A DNA stretch of 64,000 nt from an uncultured Candidatus Saccharibacteria bacterium (GTDB lineage: Bacteria > Patescibacteriota > Doudnabacteria > UBA920), in the NCBI GenBank assembly GCA_964416765.1, contig CAYQEU010000001.1:65675-129674 (forward strand), read 5' to 3'. The position numbers and the translations under genes were made by a program. How positions within the stretch are numbered: position 1 is the first letter of the stretch; each line of letters begins with the position of its first letter. The notes below the pieces were generated by a model. The model did not search any database. It was not told the origin of the DNA and saw only the letters and a list, made by a program, of their open reading frames with translations. This document shows, piece by piece, positions 2,868 through 42,433 of this stretch.

Positions 2868-5780
2868 ATGCCCGAGAAATACTCTCCTGAAATAAACGAT
2901 ATGCGCCGGGAGGCTTACAGTGAAGGTTCTCCCCTCCATGAAGCGCGAAAAAAAAGAGACGAAGAAAGAAAAGCCAGTACTAAAATTTCCAGCCGGTTAT
3001 TCGGCAGTGCCACCTCACATGTTGAGGCGGCCAACAGGGCGAGCGAAGAAGCACATCGATTGCATCTGGAAGCGAAGCAAAGGATTGACCTGGCCAAGGC
3101 CCGGTGGAAGGTGGACTTTGAATCTACTGGAAACGCCAAAACTGACCAGCATTTATTGCAATGGTATTTTGAACGGTTTCGGGGACGCTCCGAAGCTTAC
3201 CCGGTCGCAACCGATAGCTTTATCGGCAAGTCGCGGAATGAGTACAACGCCGCGTGGCTAAGTCGTGAGTTAGTGCAAAATTTTGTAGACCACAATCCGG
3301 ATCATCCCGGTACTTTAGACGGAGTAGAAGCAACTGAAGAAGATTTGGGTAATAATACTTCCCGCTTTACCATCCACGGTAACTGGTCATTTGAAGACCC
3401 AACCGGCATTATTAGCCCTCACTCCGACAAGCCGGAAGGCATGAATACCGCAGGTGGTAATGGCATTGGTTTAAAGCAAACGGCGATTCGGTTGATGCGC
3501 GATTTCGGCGCGAAGAAATTTGAAATACAAGGCGATGAATGGGTAGCCAACTATCAGTTGGTCAAGAAAGACCAGGTCAACAAGGAACTGCGTCAGGTTT
3601 TTGACTTAGTCGAGAAACCGCAAAACCGGCAGCTGCAGCACGATTGGCTGGTTGCCAAGCTAAAGGGATCAAAAGAAAATAATGGTAACGCTTATGTAAT
3701 TGAAACGGATAATGAAGAATTGATCCATGCTCTCCGCAAGTTTAACGAACTTGGTGTATCGGAAGGTAACCCGTACCTGAAAGATCCTGACTTTAAGAAT
3801 GAAGAAGGTTCGATAAAATGGATTCTGCCCAAAGACATTGCCGATAAGCCTGAAGGACGTTTGTTCATTAATGGGCAAGTCATGAATTATGACCATAAAG
3901 GAGACTCGTCAGACAGTTACTGGGTTGGCCCGAAGTATATGACCTTGCAGTTAAACAACGTGGATTATAAAATCAGTGTTGACCGCCCGCCGGTAAACAG
4001 TTTTGAACTTCAGCGCTACGCTGAAAAGTTGGTTAACTCCATGACTACTGAACAGCTGGTGGAACAGCTAAAGCTTTCGGAACCGATATGGACCACTACG
4101 GAGGACGAAAAGACGGGATCGCTGGGAGTTATATTGAAAATGGTAAGTACGCTGGGATATAGGAGTGACTACAAAGCGGAAGATTTTGGTTCCGTGTTCG
4201 GCAACAAGTACCTGGCCGCGGAGTACAGCATAACGGCATCACAGCGAAAGCAGCTTGAAGAGCGAGGTTTTATCTTATGCCCATCCCGATTCAGTTCCAT
4301 AGGCATGCCTAAGGCATCCAGTGAGTTGGGGGACTTTGAGGTAGCCACCAACCAGAAGCCTGATGCATGGCGGTCCAAGCGAACTTTGGAAAAAGAAGCC
4401 GAAGCAAACGGGGTGCCCGTAGCTTTTGAGCAAGTTAAAGCCAGCAGCGGAGCGCAATTATTTGGCTTAATTAAGGAGCGATTGGGACAGTTTAACCCAC
4501 AATTGCTATCCGAACCGGGAAGCAATAAAATGCGGATTCGTTTGGAAGGATCCATCCCGCCAAAACTTCTTTCCAGCATACTAGCCAACCCAACAACCGA
4601 AGAACAAAAAGCCCTATATTTCATTCGCGGGGTAGCCATGAAAGGCCTAACTGATCGTGCCCTGCAAAATATGTACATGTCCCAGGGGGAATACGTTACT
4701 ACTTTCGCGCTCGACCACGATATTGAAACCAAGGAAGATTCTTTATATGTCAGGAATACAAAGTCCGCGAGTCCTGAAGGATGGTTTATAGAATTCGAAG
4801 TGACCGAGAAGGACAGGGAAGCAGTTTTGTCAGCGTTCCAGGAAGCGCCGGAAGCTAAACCCGCAACGAACCCGCAGATCGGCATCGTACCGGCTAGGGG
4901 AGAAGTTCAGCCTACAGAAGCGCTAGCGAAACAACCAGCTACAGAGAACGAGAATACCGCTTTAGCCAAACCACGGCCGAAAGCTTACCCGACTAGAATA
5001 GTTGATATCGAGTTAACTCCCGAAGCCCGGGAAATTGCCGATAAATTGGAAAAGGAAATTCCCGAGTTGGCCGAGACCGTCGGAAAGCTAGAAAGCATTT
5101 TGCCCAAAGAGGAAGCAAACAGCGGCGTTGATTACCGCGTGGCGATGTACCAGGAGCTGCAACAATCGGGGGAAATTGACCGGGTGGCTTTGCGCAATTC
5201 CAATTACCTGGGGAGCAAAACCTTACTGGAAATTTTGGATGATTATAACAACGTAAACATATCCACGGTATCTGTTAACCGTGAAATTAGCGGCGCTGAA
5301 ACTAAGCTGACTTCCCTTAACCGCAGGATAGCGAATGTAGCCAACCGGTTCCGTCCATCGGAAGAAATGGTCAATAATGATTTTGAGATTGTCATGGATC
5401 CGGAAGAACGGCAATTAATCCAACTCGGCATGCTCCGCGCTTATGTCGCTTTCGTTACCGACGCGCAGTTCAACAACGATTTCCTGCTGTTCCGCGGGTC
5501 CGGCACCCGGGCCATTAACATCGACAAAAAGGCGATTGGCTTCCATGAAGAATTATTGAAGCAGGAATTTGGCAAAACTGTAATGTCCGCTTTGCATGAA
5601 GTGGCACACAACGAAGTTTCCAACCACGGCCCGCAGTTTATTTCCATGCTCCAAGCGTTAACGGCTCGCGCCCAGGAAAGACTGCTTGGCGTTATTGACA
5701 AGCAAAGCAGGGGAGAGCAGCTGGATGAAACAGAACAAATAATCCAGGCAATCTACCAAGAGTGGGAAAAAATGAGATAA
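2868..5780 (+). CDS. Large orphan protein (970 aa) with N-terminal GHKL/HATPase_c-like motifs and a C-terminal HExxHx5H zincin-like motif
   Basis: It is a single long ORF with an RBS-like GAAACTATG context. Candidate GHKL motifs are an N-box-like ELVQNFVDH and a G2-box-like GGNGIGLKQTAI. An HEVAHNEVSNH motif sits about 60 aa from the C-terminus. No other family is recognisable. A hairpin terminator follows at 5782-5808. Confidence 0.6.
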   Translation: MPEKYSPEINDMRREAYSEGSPLHEARKKRDEERKASTKISSRLFGSATSHVEAANRASEEAHRLHLEAKQRIDLAKARWKVDFESTGNAKTDQHLLQWYFERFRGRSEAYPVATDSFIGKSRNEYNAAWLSRELVQNFVDHNPDHPGTLDGVEATEEDLGNNTSRFTIHGNWSFEDPTGIISPHSDKPEGMNTAGGNGIGLKQTAIRLMRDFGAKKFEIQGDEWVANYQLVKKDQVNKELRQVFDLVEKPQNRQLQHDWLVAKLKGSKENNGNAYVIETDNEELIHALRKFNELGVSEGNPYLKDPDFKNEEGSIKWILPKDIADKPEGRLFINGQVMNYDHKGDSSDSYWVGPKYMTLQLNNVDYKISVDRPPVNSFELQRYAEKLVNSMTTEQLVEQLKLSEPIWTTTEDEKTGSLGVILKMVSTLGYRSDYKAEDFGSVFGNKYLAAEYSITASQRKQLEERGFILCPSRFSSIGMPKASSELGDFEVATNQKPDAWRSKRTLEKEAEANGVPVAFEQVKASSGAQLFGLIKERLGQFNPQLLSEPGSNKMRIRLEGSIPPKLLSSILANPTTEEQKALYFIRGVAMKGLTDRALQNMYMSQGEYVTTFALDHDIETKEDSLYVRNTKSASPEGWFIEFEVTEKDREAVLSAFQEAPEAKPATNPQIGIVPARGEVQPTEALAKQPATENENTALAKPRPKAYPTRIVDIELTPEAREIADKLEKEIPELAETVGKLESILPKEEANSGVDYRVAMYQELQQSGEIDRVALRNSNYLGSKTLLEILDDYNNVNISTVSVNREISGAETKLTSLNRRIANVANRFRPSEEMVNNDFEIVMDPEERQLIQLGMLRAYVAFVTDAQFNNDFLLFRGSGTRAINIDKKAIGFHEELLKQEFGKTVMSALHEVAHNEVSNHGPQFISMLQALTARAQERLLGVIDKQSRGEQLDETEQIIQAIYQEWEKMR

Positions 5781-5871: not shown

Positions 5872-5947
5872 TGGTGGGTCGGGTGGGGTTCGAACCCACG
5901 ACAAATGGCTTAAAAGGCCACTGCTCTACCGACTGAGCTACCGACCC
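5872..5947 (-). tRNA. tRNA-Lys (anticodon UUU)
   Basis: The reverse complement is GGGTCGGTAGCTCAGTCGGTAGAGCAGTGGCCTTTTAAGCCATTTGTCGTGGGTTCGAACCCCACCCGACCCACCA. It folds as a cloverleaf with anticodon loop CUUUUAA, a T-loop GGTTCGAAC, and an encoded CCA. Confidence 0.9.
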
Positions 5948-11528: not shown

Positions 11529-11614
11529 GTCGGTAGTATAGCAGGGAAGTGGGTGCGGTCAAAACATTAACGATGGCCGCAGGTAAGTCATGATAGAATA
11601 AACATAGATACAAT

Positions 11615-32965: not shown

Positions 32966-32983
32966 TTATGGTATGCTAAAACC

Positions 32984-33910
32984 ATGCCAGAACTACCAGA
33001 AGTCGAAACCGTGGTAAGGGAACTAAACCGCAAGCTTAAGGGGCGGACCATTACCTCAGTGGAAGTGCGCAAGCCAAAGCTTGTGGCGGTGGGGCCTAAA
33101 ACCGTCTCCAATATCCGGGCTTCTTCCGCCGCCGCGGCAAAAAAGTTTTCTTTGATGATGGCCGGACACAAGTTTGTTTCGGTAAAGCGCCGCGCCAAAT
33201 TGCTAATTTTTGACCTGGACGGGCCGCTTTCAATGCTGGCACATTTAAAAATGACTGGCCAGTTTATTTTTGAAGACAAAGCTCTGCAAAAAAAGACGGG
33301 GAGCAAGTATAGGATTTTAAATAGATTAACCGCACCGCTCGTGCAGCTGCCGAGCAAGTATACCCATGTAATTTTCCGTTTTAAGGACGGGTCAACTTTG
33401 TATTTCAACGACCTTCGCCAGTTTGGCTATTTAAAAATTGTTAAGGATAATGAAGTTGCCGCGGTGCCCGAACTGCAAAATTATGGCCCCGAACCATTGG
33501 AAAAAAGTTTTACGGAGCAGGTGTTTGTAAAAGTAGTGGAACGGCGCGAGCGCACCACTATAAAGCAGGTGCTCATGGACCCCACGGTTGTGGCGGGGAT
33601 TGGCAATATTTATTCCGATGAAATTTTGTACCATGCCAAAATTTTGCCGACGCGCTTGGTGGGGACGCTAGACAAAAAGGAACTCCACGCGGTCTATAAA
33701 CAGATCAGGCCGGTGTTAACGACCGCCATTAAATATAAAGGTTCCAGCGTGGGGGATTTCGTGCGGACCGACGGAAAATGGGGGAGTATGGGCAAGCATC
33801 ACTATGTATATGGACGCAAGGGGCAGCCTTGCAAGCGCTGTGGTACAATAATTAAAAGCGTAAAGCTTGGCGGTAGGACTTCCTGCTACTGCCCTAAAGA
33901 GCAAAAATAG
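32984..33910 (+). CDS. mutM: Formamidopyrimidine-DNA glycosylase (Fpg/MutM)
   Basis: The N-terminal MPELPEVET catalytic Pro-Glu, the H2TH region and a C-terminal zinc finger CKRCGTIIK...CYCPKEQ are present. It has insertions relative to E. coli Fpg. Confidence 0.85.
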   Translation: MPELPEVETVVRELNRKLKGRTITSVEVRKPKLVAVGPKTVSNIRASSAAAAKKFSLMMAGHKFVSVKRRAKLLIFDLDGPLSMLAHLKMTGQFIFEDKALQKKTGSKYRILNRLTAPLVQLPSKYTHVIFRFKDGSTLYFNDLRQFGYLKIVKDNEVAAVPELQNYGPEPLEKSFTEQVFVKVVERRERTTIKQVLMDPTVVAGIGNIYSDEILYHAKILPTRLVGTLDKKELHAVYKQIRPVLTTAIKYKGSSVGDFVRTDGKWGSMGKHHYVYGRKGQPCKRCGTIIKSVKLGGRTSCYCPKEQK

Positions 33911-33923
33911 GAAAAGAAATAAC

Positions 33924-34124
33924 ATGGAAGATTTAACCCAAAAAACTGACCGGCAGCTTCTGGAGGAAATCCACGAGAATTCCCGGAAGACCAAAAATTA
34001 CTTGATGTGGCAACTCATCATAACGGTGGCCTTGGTGGTGCTTCCGCTCTTGGCCATGGGCATAATTTTGCCACAAGTGCTATCAAGCTTAAGTGCCGCT
34101 TACGGCGGAGGACTAATCCAATGA
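33924..34124 (+). CDS. Small membrane protein (66 aa, C-terminal TM helix)
   Basis: The start is taken at MEDLTQK. It has a charged N-terminus followed by a hydrophobic helix. Its stop overlaps the next ORF's start (ATGA). Confidence 0.4.
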   Translation: MEDLTQKTDRQLLEEIHENSRKTKNYLMWQLIITVALVVLPLLAMGIILPQVLSSLSAAYGGGLIQ

Positions 34125-34450
34125 CAGACGAACGCTGGGAAGAATTGATGGAAACGTTGGGTGTGTCTTCAACCAACGAGCCGTTGTACCAGGAGACGGG
34201 CGAAGGGCAGAAAGAATCGGGCAATCAGGATATTGCCATCTTTAAGCGCGGCGCCGACACTTACAAAATAGTCCGGGAGAACCGCCCCGTAGTTCTGGAA
34301 AAGAAGATGACATATTCCCACCGCCAGGGAGACACGGCCCGTACTGAATACAAGCTTTCAGACACTGAGATGAGCCATAAAATCCGCGTATTCAAAGAAG
34401 TGGACATAGACGAATGGGATGAAATGAGCGCGGGTAACTTGGGACTATGA
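34121..34450 (+). CDS. Hypothetical protein (109 aa)
   Basis: The RBS ggagga is 9 nt upstream. Its start overlaps the upstream stop and its stop overlaps the downstream start, indicating translational coupling. Confidence 0.45.
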   Translation: MTDERWEELMETLGVSSTNEPLYQETGEGQKESGNQDIAIFKRGADTYKIVRENRPVVLEKKMTYSHRQGDTARTEYKLSDTEMSHKIRVFKEVDIDEWDEMSAGNLGL

Positions 34451-35376
34451 GTGAAAGTTTAAACAATCGCATCCTGGCCAGCTTGCGATTTTTTGATTTG
34501 CAAGACCTGCCCCTGACCCACTTTGAACTGCACAAGTTTTTATTGGGCGACACCGAGGCCATCCAGCTTTCCCTGGATGGGCATTTTGAATTGACAGGAC
34601 GGCCTGCCGCCGGAGATGAAGAAACTTTGGCAGAGGTGCTTTCCTCGTTAGCTAGCTTAAAGGCAGAGGGCAAGATAGGGGAATATAACGGGTATTATTT
34701 TTTGCCAGGACGTGAAAGTTTGGTTGCATTACGGCTAGGTAATAACGCATACGGGATTAAGCGCGAACAGCGGATCCGGCGCTATATGGGGGGAGTGAAA
34801 TATCTGCCTTTTATCCGCGGCATTGCTTTGGCCGGCTCCCAGGCTTTAGGACAGCAGCGCGCCGAAAGTGACATTGACCTGTTCATTATGACCGACTCGA
34901 ACTTCATGTGGACGGCCCGCACTTTCCTGACTGCTTATTTCCAGGTTTTGGGAAAACGGCGCTACGGAAAAAAGATTGCCAACCGGTTTTGCCTGAACCA
35001 CTACCTGGCGCGCCCCCGCGAAGTCGACGCCGAGAAAAACCTATATAAAGCGATGGAATATTTGAAACTGCGCCCCGTGGTTTACCCGGCCGGCATAGCG
35101 GCATTCCAGCAGGCTAACGCAGCTTGGATAAAAGTGTTTTTTCCGAACGCGGAATTTCCTGAAGCAACCGGCGCGAGACAATCACGTTTGCAAAGAACTT
35201 TGGAAAAAATTTACGCTGCCGTGGGTGGCAGCGCGTTAGAACGATGGCTAGGCAAGTGGCAGCTGCGCCGTATCACCCAGGACAAGTTTATTTTCGTTCG
35301 GGAGGATGAACTATCGTTCCACCCGGAAAGCAAGCACGAAGCTTTACTCTCCGGATTTTTCAAACTCCATAAATAG
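34447..35376 (+). CDS. Nucleotidyltransferase-domain protein (Pol-beta superfamily)
   Basis: The motif GIALAGSQALGQQRAESDIDLFI matches the GS-x(9-13)-DxD minimal nucleotidyltransferase signature. The protein is 309 aa with N- and C-terminal helical extensions. Its 3' end overlaps a convergent methyltransferase gene by 33 nt. Confidence 0.6.
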   Translation: MSESLNNRILASLRFFDLQDLPLTHFELHKFLLGDTEAIQLSLDGHFELTGRPAAGDEETLAEVLSSLASLKAEGKIGEYNGYYFLPGRESLVALRLGNNAYGIKREQRIRRYMGGVKYLPFIRGIALAGSQALGQQRAESDIDLFIMTDSNFMWTARTFLTAYFQVLGKRRYGKKIANRFCLNHYLARPREVDAEKNLYKAMEYLKLRPVVYPAGIAAFQQANAAWIKVFFPNAEFPEATGARQSRLQRTLEKIYAAVGGSALERWLGKWQLRRITQDKFIFVREDELSFHPESKHEALLSGFFKLHK

Positions 35377-36093
35377 GAGGTAAGGATACCGGTGGAGTTT
35401 GTACTGGCCGGTAAAATTGGGACTGTCTTCAGGGCTTTCCAGATCCTCAAAACGGCGCAGGTTAAATCCGCTCTCCGTAATATTATTTAAGTGTTCCGAC
35501 AGTTTGTAGAAATAACCGGTCAGGTATTTTTTAAAAGAGTAGTGCCGGCTGGTTTTGCTGAACCAATGGTAAGGCCGTAGTTTTAGCTTCGGCTTTCGCA
35601 TGAGCAGGCGGCCAATTATACCGCGTTTCCAAACCCCAACTGGGTAAGCGTAATATGGGTTGGCTATGCTAATAAGAAGCTTCCCCCGGGGCTTTAATAT
35701 TCTCTTCATCTCGGCAAAAGTTTTTTTCTGGTCTTCTACGTCATGAGCGGCCATGCTGAAAATGATGGTGTCGAACTCGCCATCGGAATAGGGGAGGGGT
35801 TCGGCCAAGTCTACCAAACGCGCGGCCAGGCCTGGGTAGGTTTTGTTGATATAATCAATGAAGAATTTGGACCCGTCACAGCATTCAACATTAGGGAACT
35901 CATTGCGCAGCTTGGCGGCCAGCCAGCCTGGTCCGGAAGCCGCGTCCAGTATTTTCTGATTACTACTATTGCCTAAAGCGTTTCGAAAAGCAGAGTACAG
36001 CACGGACTGGTGCACCTGCCCGGCTTCGGTATCCAGATATTTCAAAAATGCTTCGGCCCCCGCGGCATTGTCATAGGAATCTTTGGCTCTCAT
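35344..36093 (-). CDS. Class I SAM-dependent methyltransferase (Methyltransf_11/25-like), probably leaderless
   Basis: The SAM motif is LDAASGPGWLAA and motif II is DTIIFSM. The start is taken at MRAKDSYD, which is immediately preceded on the minus strand by an extended -10 TTGCTATAAT and 7 nt. A longer ORF runs to 36213. Confidence 0.65.
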   Translation of the reverse strand: MRAKDSYDNAAGAEAFLKYLDTEAGQVHQSVLYSAFRNALGNSSNQKILDAASGPGWLAAKLRNEFPNVECCDGSKFFIDYINKTYPGLAARLVDLAEPLPYSDGEFDTIIFSMAAHDVEDQKKTFAEMKRILKPRGKLLISIANPYYAYPVGVWKRGIIGRLLMRKPKLKLRPYHWFSKTSRHYSFKKYLTGYFYKLSEHLNNITESGFNLRRFEDLESPEDSPNFTGQYKLHRYPYLLFMEFEKSGE

Positions 36094-36139
36094 GCCCAAA
36101 TTATAGCAATTTAGCGGCCTTTCAGCTAAAATAGTAATC

Positions 36140-36168
36140 TTGACGGGAACCCCGCCATTCGTTATATT
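36140..36168 (+). promoter_or_regulatory. groESL promoter (TTGACG-17-TATATT)
   Basis: ttgacg at 36140-36145, a 17-nt spacer, and tatatt at 36163-36168. It lies immediately upstream of CIRCE. Confidence 0.65.
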
Positions 36169-36173
36169 ATGAA

Positions 36174-36200
36174 TTAGCACTCCCGACGAAGGAGTGCTAA
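36174..36200 (+). promoter_or_regulatory. CIRCE element (HrcA operator), perfect consensus
   Basis: TTAGCACTC-ccgacgaag-GAGTGCTAA: 9-bp inverted repeats with a 9-nt spacer, 37 nt upstream of groES. Confidence 0.9.
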
Positions 36201-36236
36201 AAAGACAAATCATTAATTAAGCTAACAGCAGAAGAT

Positions 36237-36545
36237 ATGAAAGTACGACCATTAGGAAATCGAATTTTAGTAAAACAGCTGTCCACGGAAGAAGTTACCA
36301 AGAGCGGCATTATTTTGCCGGAAACAGCTGACAAAGAAAAGAAAGCCCAGGGCAAAATTGTGGCCGTGGGAAACGGGGAAGATATTTCCAAGCTCGGTTT
36401 GAAAATCGGCGATACCGTGGTATTCGGCAAATACGCCGGCGAAGAAGTTGAAATTGACGAGGACGGCACCAAGGCTGAATACAAAATCTTGTATGTCGGT
36501 GAAGACAAAGACGAAAGCGAAGTCGCCGCTATTATAGAAGACTAA
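36237..36545 (+). CDS. groES: Co-chaperonin GroES
   Basis: [13 protein letters not shown]...IILPETA is the canonical 10-kDa chaperonin sequence. Confidence 0.95.
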
Positions 36546-36566: not shown

Positions 36567-38231
36567 ATGCCAAAATTGATTAAATCCAAGAACGAAGCAA
36601 AGCAGGCCATTAAAGATGGCGTGGATAAAGTCGCTAACGTAGTTAAGGTAACCTTAGGTCCCACCGGCAAAGCCGTCATTTTAGACCGCGGCTTTGGCAG
36701 CCCAACTATTTCCGATGACGGTGTTACGGTAGCTAAAGAAATAGAGCTCGAAGACAAATTTGAAAACGTCGGTGCTTCCTTGATTCAGGAAGTTGCCAAC
36801 CGAACCAACGAAGAAGCCGGCGACGGCACCACAACCGCGACTGTATTGGCCCAGAAAATGATTGAAGAAGCTTTTGAAGCGGCCGCTTTGGCATCCAGCC
36901 AGGCTAATGAAATTAAGCGCGGCATGGACAAGGCTGTGGCTTTCGTCGTTGAAGAATTGAATAAAGTAAAAAAGACTGTCGGCGAAAACGACATTGAACG
37001 TGTTGCTACTATTGCCTCCCTGGACGAAAATGTAGGAAAAGAAATTGCAGAGGCTATGAAGGAAATTGGCCCCGACGGTGTCATTACCGTTGAAGAAGGC
37101 CAGACCATTGGCATTGAGCGCGAAGTTGTAAAAGGCATGCGCTTCGACAAGGGTTTCGTTTCCCCATACATGGTGACCAATGCCGAACGCATGGAAGCCG
37201 TGTCCGAAGATCCTTTCATTTTGATTACTGACAAGAAGATTTCTTCCGTCCAGGAAGTTCTGCCTTTGCTCGAAAAAGTTGCCCAGTCCGGCAAGAAAGA
37301 CCTGGTGATTATCGCGGATGACATTGAAGGCGAAGCTTTGACCACCTTCATTTTAAACAAGCTCCGCGGCACCTTTAACGTGCTCGCCATCAAAGCCCCT
37401 GGCTTTGGCGACCGCCGCAAGGAAATGCTGCAGGATATTGCCGTTTTGACCGGCGGCCAGGTTATTACCGAGGATTTGGGCTTAAAGCTTGATAAGGCTG
37501 AAGTGGAACAGTTGGGACGTGCCCGCAAGGTAATTGCCACCAAGGAACACTCTACTATTGTGGACGGCCAGGGCGACAAGAGCGCGCTAGAAGCCCGGGT
37601 TAACCAGATCAAGGTGGAAATTAAAGAATCTACTTCTGAATTTGATAAGGAAAAGCTCCAGGAACGCATGGCCCGTTTGTCCGGTGGTGTTGGCGTAATT
37701 AAAGTGGGCGCGTTCACTGAAACAGAAATGAAAGCCAAGAAGTTTAAGATTGAAGACGCATTGAACGCCACCCGCGCCGCCGTGGAAGAAGGAATTATTG
37801 CCGGTGGGGGAGCGGCGTTGGTAAAAGTTTCCTCACGCATGGCCGGATTCGGCAAGGAATTGCCACGGGGCCAACAGCTCGGTGTGGAAATTGTGCGCAA
37901 GTCTTTGGAAGCTCCATTGCGCCAGATCGCCGAAAACACCGGGGTAGAATCCAACGACATCCTTACTTACATCAAGTCCAATGGCGATTACGCTGGCTAC
38001 GACTTTAACAAGTACGACCATTCTGATTGGCAAACCGGCACCGTGGAAGATATGATGGCCGCCGGTATCGTTGATCCGCTTAAGGTTTCCCGCCTGGCTT
38101 TGGAAAATGCCGTATCAATTGCTTCCACTTTGGTTACCACCGAAGGAATTGTTGTAGACAAGCCGGAACCGAAAGACAACAGCGCTGCCGCTGCCGCCAT
38201 GGGGGGCATGGGTGGAATGGGCGGCTTCTAA
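36567..38231 (+). CDS. groEL: Chaperonin GroEL
   Basis: The protein is 554 aa with canonical Cpn60 blocks and a C-terminal GGMGGMGGF tail. Confidence 0.95.
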
Positions 38232-41764: not shown

Positions 41765-41839
41765 TGGAGCGGGTAGGGGGAGTCGAACCCCCATCATCAG
41801 TTTGGAAAACTGAGATAATAACCGCTATACGATACCCGC
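41765..41839 (-). tRNA. tRNA-Trp (anticodon CCA)
   Basis: The reverse complement is GCGGGTATCGTATAGCGGTTATTATCTCAGTTTTCCAAACTGATGATGGGGGTTCGACTCCCCCTACCCGCTCCA. The anticodon loop is UUCCAAA. Confidence 0.9.
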
Positions 41840-41850
41840 GGAAATTGTAG

Positions 41851-41927
41851 TGGTCGGGAACCCGGGACTCGAACCCGGAACCTCTCGCTCCCAAAGCGAG
41901 CACTCTAGCCAATTGAGCCAGTTCCCG
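41851..41927 (-). tRNA. tRNA-Pro (anticodon UGG)
   Basis: The reverse complement is CGGGAACTGGCTCAATTGGCTAGAGTGCTCGCTTTGGGAGCGAGAGGTTCCGGGTTCGAGTCCCGGGTTCCCGACCA. The anticodon loop is UUUGGGA with G37. Confidence 0.9.
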
Positions 41928-42001
41928 TTAATTGAATAGCCTGCGTATTATAGGCTATTTCACGGCTTTTTTCAAGCGTGACTAGCTGATATAATGAATA
42001 T

Positions 42002-42433
42002 ATGACAGATAACCTGGATCCAAAAACTCCGTTTCAGAAGATTGTCCCTAAACCATGGGGGCATGAAGTGATTTTCGCGCCGGAAAACCTGAGCTATACC
42101 GGGAAGATTGAAGTGATAAATGCCGGAAAAAGGACTTCACTACATTACCACGAAGCGAAGCTGGAAACTATGGTTTTGGTTTCAGGGAAAGCCGTTTTAT
42201 GGCTGGCGGATGACCAAGGACAGATTGAGAAGATCCAAATGGAACCGCAAAAAGGCTATACCATACCTCTGAAGCAAGTACACCGCTTTGAGGCCATCGA
42301 AGACTCCATGATCATAGAAGCATCGGAACCAGAGAAGGGGACAACGGTCCGGGTGGAGGACGATTATACTCGATCCAACGAGGATGACGAGACCCGAAAA
42401 GACCCCATGCGGGGGTGGAGCGGAGAGGCCTAA
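42002..42433 (+). CDS. Cupin-fold protein (cupin_2/mannose-6-phosphate-isomerase-like small barrel)
   Basis: The protein is 143 aa with the two-His cupin motifs G.R.SLHYHEAKLE and a second conserved block. It has an acidic C-terminal tail. Confidence 0.65.
   Translation: MTDNLDPKTPFQKIVPKPWGHEVIFAPENLSYTGKIEVINAGKRTSLHYHEAKLETMVLVSGKAVLWLADDQGQIEKIQMEPQKGYTIPLKQVHRFEAIEDSMIIEASEPEKGTTVRVEDDYTRSNEDDETRKDPMRGWSGEA

Follow-up and report, generated by a model that had tools for sequence, protein, structure and literature searches.

The closest described counterparts of the locus reported here include several kinds of nucleotidyltransferase (NTase). The MNT/MntA antitoxins are single-domain enzymes of 100-150 amino acids (aa) with the Pol-beta fold, paired with a HEPN toxin and found in mobile or variable settings. 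The AadA/ANT(9)/Lnu proteins, in which a helical C-terminal domain comes after the NTase core, are acidic products of accessory resistance genes. GlnD and GlnE, protein uridylyl- and adenylyltransferases that act with PII or glutamine synthetase, carry an SDIDL-type NTase motif and offer a conceptual analogy, that of an NTase with a small partner (~110 aa) whose exposed loop is conserved. The AbiEii/MenT proteins are basic NTases of ~300 aa that act on tRNA, in a system that includes a winged helix-turn-helix (wHTH) module, the AbiEi antitoxin. Here we analysed three consecutive open reading frames (ORF1, ORF2 and ORF3) within a 64,000-nucleotide (nt) stretch of a Patescibacteria genome (assembly GCA_964416765.1, contig CAYQEU010000001.1, positions 65,675 to 129,674), referred to as the window, to which all positions below refer. 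ORF3 encodes a Pol-beta-fold NTase whose architecture and neighbourhood are distinct from those of the systems above, and which represents an uncharacterised, very widespread core enzyme of the Patescibacteria, or candidate phyla radiation (CPR); as a new defence or toxin-antitoxin system the locus fails. These ultra-small bacteria make up much of bacterial diversity, and the majority of their conserved genes lack a known function. A family whose sequence clusters number in the thousands, whose active site does not vary and which combines a three-domain architecture with a deep-clade neighbourhood is therefore a concrete candidate for CPR core biochemistry. Our overall reading, held with about even confidence, is that the three ORFs are the downstream end of a core operon passed on by vertical descent rather than a mobile toxin-antitoxin, defence or resistance cassette, and that they encode an NTase transferring nucleoside monophosphate (NMP) together with accessory partners.

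ORF1 (33924-34124, 66 aa), ORF2 (34121-34450, 109 aa) and ORF3 (34447-35376, 309 aa) all lie on the plus strand. The initial annotation had described them as a translationally coupled cassette with ATGA stop/start overlaps at 34121-34124 and 34447-34450; the coordinates and both overlaps were confirmed by direct reading, and the genes are co-oriented, tightly packed and conserved in relatives. The catalytic motif of ORF3, AGSQALGQQRAESDIDLFI, runs from G130-S131 to D142-x-D144 (34834-34878, plus strand). The Pol-beta-type signature recognised earlier is real, with a spacing of GS-x9-SDIDLF in place of the x10 first given. Pfam models matched residues 123-159 only, NTP_transf_2 with 21.1 bits against a cut-off of 21 and Polbeta with 23 bits against 26.9. 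An AlphaFold2 model computed from 36 homologues (predicted local distance difference test score (pLDDT) 89.2, predicted TM-score 0.88) displayed the strand-helix-strand arrangement of the Pol-beta NTase fold around the motif (strand 123-128, helix 130-134, strand 143-149). The model divides into an N-terminal wHTH domain (approximately residues 1-88; 34447-34710, plus strand), a beta-alpha-beta NTase core and a basic alpha/beta C-terminal region, the end of which is a conserved hairpin, DELSFHP.SKH. In this subfamily the median net charge of the wHTH domain is -5.5, that of the full-length protein about +10 and that of the remainder about +15. All 152 distinct family sequences compared kept the G and the two D residues of the motif, and 144 of the 152 kept the S; because of this invariance, ORF3 is predicted, almost certainly, to be an active enzyme. 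When 34 sequences with identities of 26-50% were aligned, P121, D142, D144, R158, G169, R172, C182 and W227 did not vary.

A search with ORF3 recovered 520 relatives, the best 120 of which were all ~304-317 aa in length and at least 49% identical. When 1.84 billion cluster representatives were searched with a hidden Markov model (HMM), there were 5452 matches at E<=1e-3, of which 4314 reached E<=1e-10; among the matches listed, nearly all were full-length proteins of 290-345 aa. Named members came from Parcubacteria, Portnoybacteria, Paceibacterota and the 'Patescibacteria group', and public annotation calls them 'hypothetical protein' or 'nucleotidyltransferase domain-containing protein'. Within this very large, uncharacterised, Patescibacteria-wide wHTH-NTase family, ORF3 is the orthologue present at this locus. 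Searches of the literature on Patescibacteria/CPR nucleotidyltransferases with groES/groEL, and on Doudnabacteria, returned no description of the family or of its groESL linkage (see below). Assignment to a housekeeping NTase family had been raised as a possible outcome; no CCA-adding (PolyA_pol/tRNA_NucTransf2), GlnD_UR_UTase or GlnE Pfam domain was detected at E<=1, and ORF3 fits no characterised housekeeping family. In one member of 702 aa, P0270, a membrane GT2 glycosyltransferase is joined to the C-terminus, and P0211 is similar and unfused; both apparently derive from GC-rich organisms, possibly outside the CPR.

The ORF3 model was compared with solved structures using Foldseek, and nothing in the PDB matched at E<1e-3. 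Weak matches were obtained to IclR, PadR and HrcA (1stz) for the N-terminus and to MntA, AadA, ANT(9), GlnE and DrrA for the core, with the GlnE structures at E-values of 0.2-0.3. A profile search of PDB sequences returned MNT antitoxins only, over the 40-residue motif (7ae2, E=1.4e-4; 1wot, E=0.01). ORF3 shares its Pol-beta fold with MNT/MntA, as well as the motif G-S-x9-11-[S]DxD, and its best PDB and NCBIfam sequence matches come from these proteins, but its 309 aa, its wHTH and basic C-terminal domains and its core location set it apart from those small, single-domain proteins. Identity with MntA was rejected, the NCBIfam model NF047752 scoring 18.5 bits against a cut-off of 60 (E=1.4e-3) over 29 residues only. 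The domain composition and size of GlnD and GlnE likewise differ from those of ORF3, and ORF2 is no PII protein by Pfam or by predicted fold. The AbiEii/MenT (DUF1814) candidate was also dropped, with no PF08843 match at E<=1 and none of these proteins in the top 50 Foldseek PDB matches; moreover, the wHTH of ORF3 is fused to the NTase, and the locus is core and was never found on mobile elements.

Similarity of the core to resistance enzymes raises the alternative that ORF3 is an NTase or phosphotransferase of the ANT/Lnu or LicD kind, acting on a metabolite, an antibiotic or an envelope glycopolymer and perhaps held at the membrane by ORF1. As in AadA/ANT(9)/Lnu, a C-terminal domain follows the NTase core, which superposes in part on AadA/ANT(9) (~85 residues, root-mean-square deviation 4.2-4.4 A, Foldseek probability 0.7-0.85). 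The P0270 fusion lends weak support, GT4 genes adjoin the NTase in a few loci, ORF1 is a membrane protein, and the basic charge could reflect binding to membranes or anionic polymers. However, the ANT(9) model NF012212 scored 11.3 bits against a cut-off of 340, the Foldseek matches to AadA/ANT(9) had E>0.1, and an antibiotic NTase was rejected as an identity for ORF3. The resistance proteins are acidic, whereas ORF3 is basic and has the additional wHTH; its gene is single-copy and vertically inherited in a core context without resistance- or island-like features, and the association with glycosyltransferases is rare. We consider a small-molecule or envelope substrate decidedly unlikely.

The genomic context of ORF3 was then established in relatives. 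A scan of one genome per species gave 110 matches, of which 80 were kept, all from metagenome-assembled genomes (MAGs) of Doudnabacteria or Patescibacteria; with nine loci from context look-ups these constitute a set of 89 Doudnabacteria-type loci, in which neighbours were sought by tblastn. Contigs carrying NTase relatives at 100, 70, 66, 57, 55 and 54% identity, the complete 943-kb genome CP064996.1 among them, shared one gene order: comEC, a peptidyl-prolyl isomerase gene, ndk, relA/spoT (opposite strand), fpg, ORF1, ORF2, the NTase gene, a convergent methyltransferase gene, groES and groEL. The core block recurred across NTase identities from 70% to ~40%. Among the 89 loci, Fpg was found beside the NTase in 80, ORF1 in 66 and ORF2, upstream, in 76; the methyltransferase was present and convergent in 75, and GroES and GroEL were each found in 80. 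The remaining genes of the window are core as well (ftsA, ftsZ, dprA and type IV pilus genes). Relatives of ORF3 were absent from 72,556 plasmids, 50,697 phage records and the IMG/VR viral contigs. The locus is a vertically inherited core gene block. Many MAGs with the Doudnabacteria-type block are labelled 'uncultured Candidatus Saccharibacteria bacterium', while gene order and protein identity group them with Doudnabacteria records; the label looks generic or wrong.

These results bear directly on the proposal of the initial annotation that the three genes constitute a small toxin-antitoxin, CBASS-like or antibiotic-modifying system. An MNT/HEPN- or AbiE-like pair, a CBASS-like system or another defence module would account for a small acidic ORF that overlaps a basic NTase gene by ATGA, which is superficially toxin-antitoxin-like, and for a motif that resembles MntA and gives weak PADLOC PDC-S09 matches (E ~1e-3, motif only). 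Against this, the core context is fixed over ~80 species-level genomes and a complete genome, and there was no match to mobile elements and no significant match to defence models. The same core block recurred in relatives, an outcome named beforehand as speaking against such a system, and where the trio occurs together (54 of 76 loci with both small ORFs) it does so in a core neighbourhood, not in an island. CBASS/CD-NTase identity was rejected, as no SMODS, CD-NTase, Mab-21 or AbiEii Pfam match was found at E<=1 and the PDC-S09 matches had E>=1e-3. A type VII toxin-antitoxin context was also rejected, since ORF2 is no HEPN protein and is missing in 9 of 76 loci with an intact NTase, as it is in thousands of family members. 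A defence function is therefore extremely unlikely. The case carries a caution, in that an NTase motif preceded by mini-ORFs with ATGA overlaps mimics a toxin-antitoxin locus in a single window, and it is the comparative context that reveals a core, vertically inherited arrangement.

The local gene arrangement suggests a longer transcription unit. The fpg/mutM gene (32984-33910, plus strand, 308 aa; Pfam Fapy_DNA_glyco, H2TH and zf-FPG on an identical gene) ends 13 nt before ORF1, and an extended -10 element, TGGTATGCT (32969-32977, plus strand), stands 6 nt ahead of its ATG. On the plus strand from the start of fpg to the end of ORF3 (35376) no terminator-like site was found, and the sole signal was a weak promoter-like match (9/12) within the fpg coding region. 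From the 13-nt gap, the absence of an internal promoter or terminator and the position of TGGTATGCT, the transcription unit is probably a leaderless fpg-ORF1-ORF2-NTase mRNA with fpg as its first gene, and ORF1-ORF2-ORF3 is probably not an autonomous three-gene unit. Short overlaps of 1 and 4 nt are ordinary in the window (e.g. 61536-62747/62744-63808 and 49942-50658/50658-51896/51896-53143); translational coupling is thus a genome-wide habit and no mark of a special module.

ORF1 is a predicted single-pass membrane protein, with residues 31-49 as its one strongly hydrophobic stretch (19 residues, Kyte-Doolittle mean 2.96), and its relatives have an N-terminal motif, ML.EIL.N[ST]RKTKNYMKWQL, followed by the transmembrane helix. 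An ORF1 HMM matched 66 of the 89 Doudnabacteria-type loci and 0 of 83 other loci. ORF2 has a net charge of about -8; a search returned 122 relatives of ~114 aa without a Pfam domain, the few named ones from Doudnabacteria or Patescibacteria. Their alignment has a nearly invariant core, VRENRPVVLEKK..YSHRQGDTARTEYKLSDTEFSHK, in which the near-invariant segment S66-R74 (SHRQGDTAR) forms a loop between the two longest strands of an AlphaFold2 model (pLDDT 77.8; one helix, then a long antiparallel beta-meander). Consistent with the earlier statement that neither small protein has a recognised family, no Pfam, NCBIfam or PADLOC family was found for ORF1 or ORF2, apart from a weak match of ORF1 to a PADLOC 4TM effector (E=0.022). 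ORF2 was without a fold or sequence match in the PDB by Foldseek and sequence search, and a HEPN identity was rejected on its predicted helix and beta-meander and on the same absence of matches. Of the 83 loci outside the Doudnabacteria type, one contained an ORF2 homologue, which did not adjoin the NTase gene: it lies in L091 at 1757-2089 (HMM E=3e-18), between Band_7 and GTPase genes and ~5 kb upstream of the NTase gene.

Among the 76 loci with sufficient upstream sequence, 54 had both small ORFs, 13 ORF2 only, 6 ORF1 only and 3 neither, and the catalytic motif was intact in all 76 regardless of their presence. Both small ORFs are lineage-specific, and either one can be dispensed with. The gap between ORF2 and the NTase gene had a median of 13 nt (<50 nt in 48 of 76 pairs, touching or overlapping in 15 of 76), that between ORF1 and ORF2 a median of 90 nt, and that between fpg and ORF1 a median of 111 nt in relatives. 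It may be that fpg, ORF1, ORF2, the NTase gene and the methyltransferase gene have no joint function and are core genes without relation to one another, kept side by side because CPR genomes are compact and rearrange slowly. The overlaps of 1-4 nt that are common throughout the window fit this explanation, as do the loss of ORF1 and ORF2 independently of one another, the location of ORF2 away from the NTase gene in L091, and gaps of >300 nt or inserted genes in 10 of 76 ORF2-NTase and 10 of 59 ORF1-ORF2 pairs (e.g. a NUDIX gene in L005). However, adjacency of ORF2 and the NTase gene is kept, at the short median spacing, down to ~37% NTase identity, and the linkage of the NTase gene with groES outlasts many rearrangements of all other neighbours, and we regard mere packing as unlikely.

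A partner role for ORF2 is central to another alternative, in which ORF3 is a protein nucleotidylylation switch comparable to MNT, GlnD or GlnE that would AMPylate or UMPylate a protein, with ORF2 in Doudnabacteria as a PII-like target or adaptor acting through its invariant SHRQGDTARTEY loop and with a family-wide target such as GroEL/GroES. The sole significant sequence matches to solved structures are protein AMPylases, the MNT antitoxins named above, which also supply the NCBIfam match. ORF2 is tightly coupled to the NTase gene, its most conserved part is an S/T/Y/H-rich loop of lower pLDDT, the charges of the basic NTase and the acidic ORF2 are complementary, and the family adjoins groESL. 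The MNT similarity, however, is confined to a 40-aa motif common to all Pol-beta NTases, and ORF2 was found in one of 83 loci from other lineages, away from the NTase gene, and is missing from some Doudnabacteria-type loci. A switch of this kind is unlikely.

To place the family more broadly, its neighbours outside the Doudnabacteria type were examined. In three Paceibacteria-type contigs, groES-groEL immediately follow, in the same orientation, an NTase gene whose product is ~29% identical to ORF3, and all other neighbours differ. With a broad family alignment as query, a metagenome scan added 80 loci with 31-50% identity to the first sequence of that alignment; where at least 700 nt of downstream sequence was available, groES followed within 600 nt on the same strand in 29 of 60 loci and within 2.1 kb in 6 more. 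Clustering produced two large groups sharing <32-38% identity, both linked to groES: within the Doudnabacteria-type cluster groES was within 6 kb in 74 of 80 loci, and within the Paceibacteria-type cluster it was adjacent in 31 of 42 and near in 5 of 42. Two small sequence clusters lacked the groES linkage and are probably paralogous subfamilies. In some Doudnabacteria-type loci without the methyltransferase gene (L070, L073 and L089) the NTase gene directly abuts groES, so the methyltransferase gene appears to have been inserted between two older neighbours, the NTase gene and groES. Of all genes around the NTase family, it is the downstream groES-groEL pair, rather than ORF1 or ORF2, whose association is conserved most deeply. 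In several loci (L090 8026-8040, L104 ~2585-2600, L111 and L124) the groES promoter has its -35 hexamer, TTGACA, on the last NTase codons or within a few nt past the stop; in L090, L104 and L111 this hexamer directly overlaps the conserved C-terminal ...DSGL tail. Packing is so tight there that the promoter is embedded in the 3' end of the gene before it.

Since in many lineages the groES promoter/operator immediately follows the NTase gene, ORF3 might be a wHTH regulator of groESL transcription or of the heat-shock response in which the NTase domain serves as sensor or effector. Its N-terminal wHTH fold, with the weak IclR, PadR and HrcA matches, agrees with this, and the recognition-helix region varies as the operators do (CIRCE versus GAACAAT-N4-5-ATTGTTC). 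However, the wHTH of this subfamily carries a net negative charge and has a poorly conserved putative recognition helix, the canonical CIRCE implies a standard HrcA, and the invariant catalytic residues argue for an enzyme. HrcA identity of ORF3 was rejected, with no PF01628 match and 1stz at Foldseek rank 24 (E=0.21). Such a regulator is very unlikely. The t6A genes tsaEBD/rimI adjoin groESL in many bacteria (Firmicutes, Actinobacteria), and because of this precedent groESL synteny need not mean a chaperonin-related function. HrcA/CIRCE and tsaEBD/rimI-groESL resemble the ORF3 locus in position only, as wHTH-containing or housekeeping genes beside groESL.

Upstream of the NTase gene a second association was apparent. 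uvrA was the direct upstream neighbour in 7 of 39 loci (L122, L132, L134, L146, L160, L164 and L168), the other upstream neighbours being variable; the linkage occurs in at least two family clusters, and in 5 of the 7 loci uvrA was co-oriented with the NTase gene at gaps of 14-39 nt. UvrC and RmuC were each encoded downstream in two loci, and a few loci had GT4 genes next to the NTase gene. The uvrA linkage parallels that of fpg in Doudnabacteria and hints at a connection with DNA repair. Between clades with less than ~35% identity, what the neighbourhoods have in common is thus groES-groEL directly downstream and a repair gene upstream, fpg or uvrA depending on the lineage.

On the reading that we favour, ORF3 would transfer NMP from a nucleoside triphosphate by two-metal catalysis at D142/D144. 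The acceptor would be a hydroxyl group on a cellular macromolecule, polyanionic in nature and bound through the basic half of the protein that comprises the catalytic and C-terminal domains, and ORF2 (acidic, with its exposed invariant loop) and ORF1 (a membrane anchor) would be accessory partners that modulate or localise the NTase. A nucleic-acid end, either a DNA-repair intermediate or an RNA 3' end, is our tentative first choice of substrate, possible rather than probable, because the catalytic half is strongly basic and the gene repeatedly lies behind fpg or uvrA in the same orientation. A protein is the less likely second choice, given the motif-level kinship with MNT AMPylases and the coupled acidic ORF2 with its conserved loop. 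A more specific scenario, speculative and rather improbable, is that the wHTH-NTase is a Patescibacteria-specific stress or maintenance enzyme functionally tied to groESL and DNA repair, performing minimal Pol-X-like end-tailing or gap-filling for Fpg/UvrA repair in genomes whose repair sets are reduced, or modifying the chaperonin, and that Doudnabacteria gained ORF2 as a PII-like regulator or substrate and ORF1 as a membrane tether.

Several observations weigh against the reading that we favour. Strand beta3 (RFCLNHY) has an invariant C182 and a near-invariant N184 and no acidic residue, so a third carboxylate is not obvious; the near-invariant E253 and E265 are placed in C-terminal helices, off this strand. 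The wHTH of the Doudnabacteria-type subfamily is acidic, which is unusual for a nucleic-acid-binding domain, and Pol X, CCA-adding enzymes and MenT were not among the top Foldseek PDB matches to ORF3. The operon structure is a prediction from sequence, the loci sampled are not phylogenetically independent, and the synteny with groESL and repair genes may result from packing and co-regulation without shared function. The present data do not distinguish between nucleic acid, protein and small-molecule acceptors.

Downstream of ORF3, the convergent gene (35344-36093, minus strand, 249 aa) encodes a class I S-adenosylmethionine methyltransferase (Methyltransf_11 53.8 bits versus 21.2, E=3e-14; Methyltransf_25 46 versus 27), the best PDB match of which is generic (LahSB, E=1e-7). 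The 33-nt overlap of its 3' end with that of ORF3 (35344-35376), reported in the initial annotation, was confirmed; in relatives the two 3' ends are separated by a median of 14 nt and overlap in 31 of 75 loci. The best terminator-like hairpins of the convergent pair fall within the coding regions of the partner (35213-35234, minus strand; 35550-35577, plus strand), and if these were used the two transcripts would overlap in antisense by ~350 nt instead of 33 nt. The methyltransferase mRNA had been called leaderless, and the geometry supports this prediction: an extended -10 element, TGCTATAAT (36108-36100, minus strand), precedes the ATG at 36093, with a spacer of 6 nt. Among 65 distinct upstream regions from relatives, TANNNT ended 4-9 nt before the ATG in 60, with the TG extension in 49 of those. 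Because of this conserved geometry the 249-aa start at 36093 is favoured. Public calls of 278-289 aa also exist (region 36094-36213, minus strand), and the 289-aa form, from 36213, crosses the groES promoter and CIRCE; these longer forms are probably over-extensions.

Similar starts recur elsewhere. TGnTAnnnT stands 6 nt before the ATG of fpg and other first genes of the window (32969-32986, 2853-2870, 11529-11544 on the minus strand, and 41986-42004), and among 61 crude gene calls TANNNT lay 5-8 nt before the ATG in 12, six of them TG-extended, with at least one gene, that of the methyltransferase, scored at a wrong upstream ATG. The 970-aa ORF at 2868-5780 was checked as a UvrA candidate and rejected. 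In other loci the NTase gene itself has a leaderless-type start, with TGATATAAT or TGCTATAAT 6 nt before its ATG (L103 ~4975-5003, L109 ~4197-4225, L111 ~4966-4994). The pattern suggests that leaderless mRNAs are a regular habit of these genomes, and no peculiarity of the methyltransferase gene.

The spacer of 143 nt between the methyltransferase gene and groES (36237-36545, plus strand; followed by groEL at 36567-38231, plus strand) holds a sigma-70-type promoter (TTGACG, 17 nt, TATATT; 36140-36168, plus strand) and, between promoter and gene, a perfect CIRCE operator, TTAGCACTC-N9-GAGTGCTAA (36174-36200, plus strand). CIRCE precedes groES in nearly all Doudnabacteria-type loci, as in a CIRCE-regulated groESL operon, and many of the 9-nt spacers of these operators contain CTTGACA, a -35-like hexamer within the operator loop. 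hrcA was not among the 10 window ORFs scanned. Several Paceibacteria-type groES genes lack CIRCE and have an inverted repeat, GAACAAT-N4-5-ATTGTTC, between a TTGACA/TAAGAT-type promoter and groES (L090 8087-8104, L092 8184-8201, L113 6184, L115 3623, L117 2159 and L127 1689). This repeat may be an alternative heat-shock operator; we know of no described element with the same sequence. Lastly, the three tRNA genes in the window, Lys-TTT (5872-5947), Gly-TCC (41765-41839) and Pro-TGG (41851-41927), all encode their own 3' CCA.

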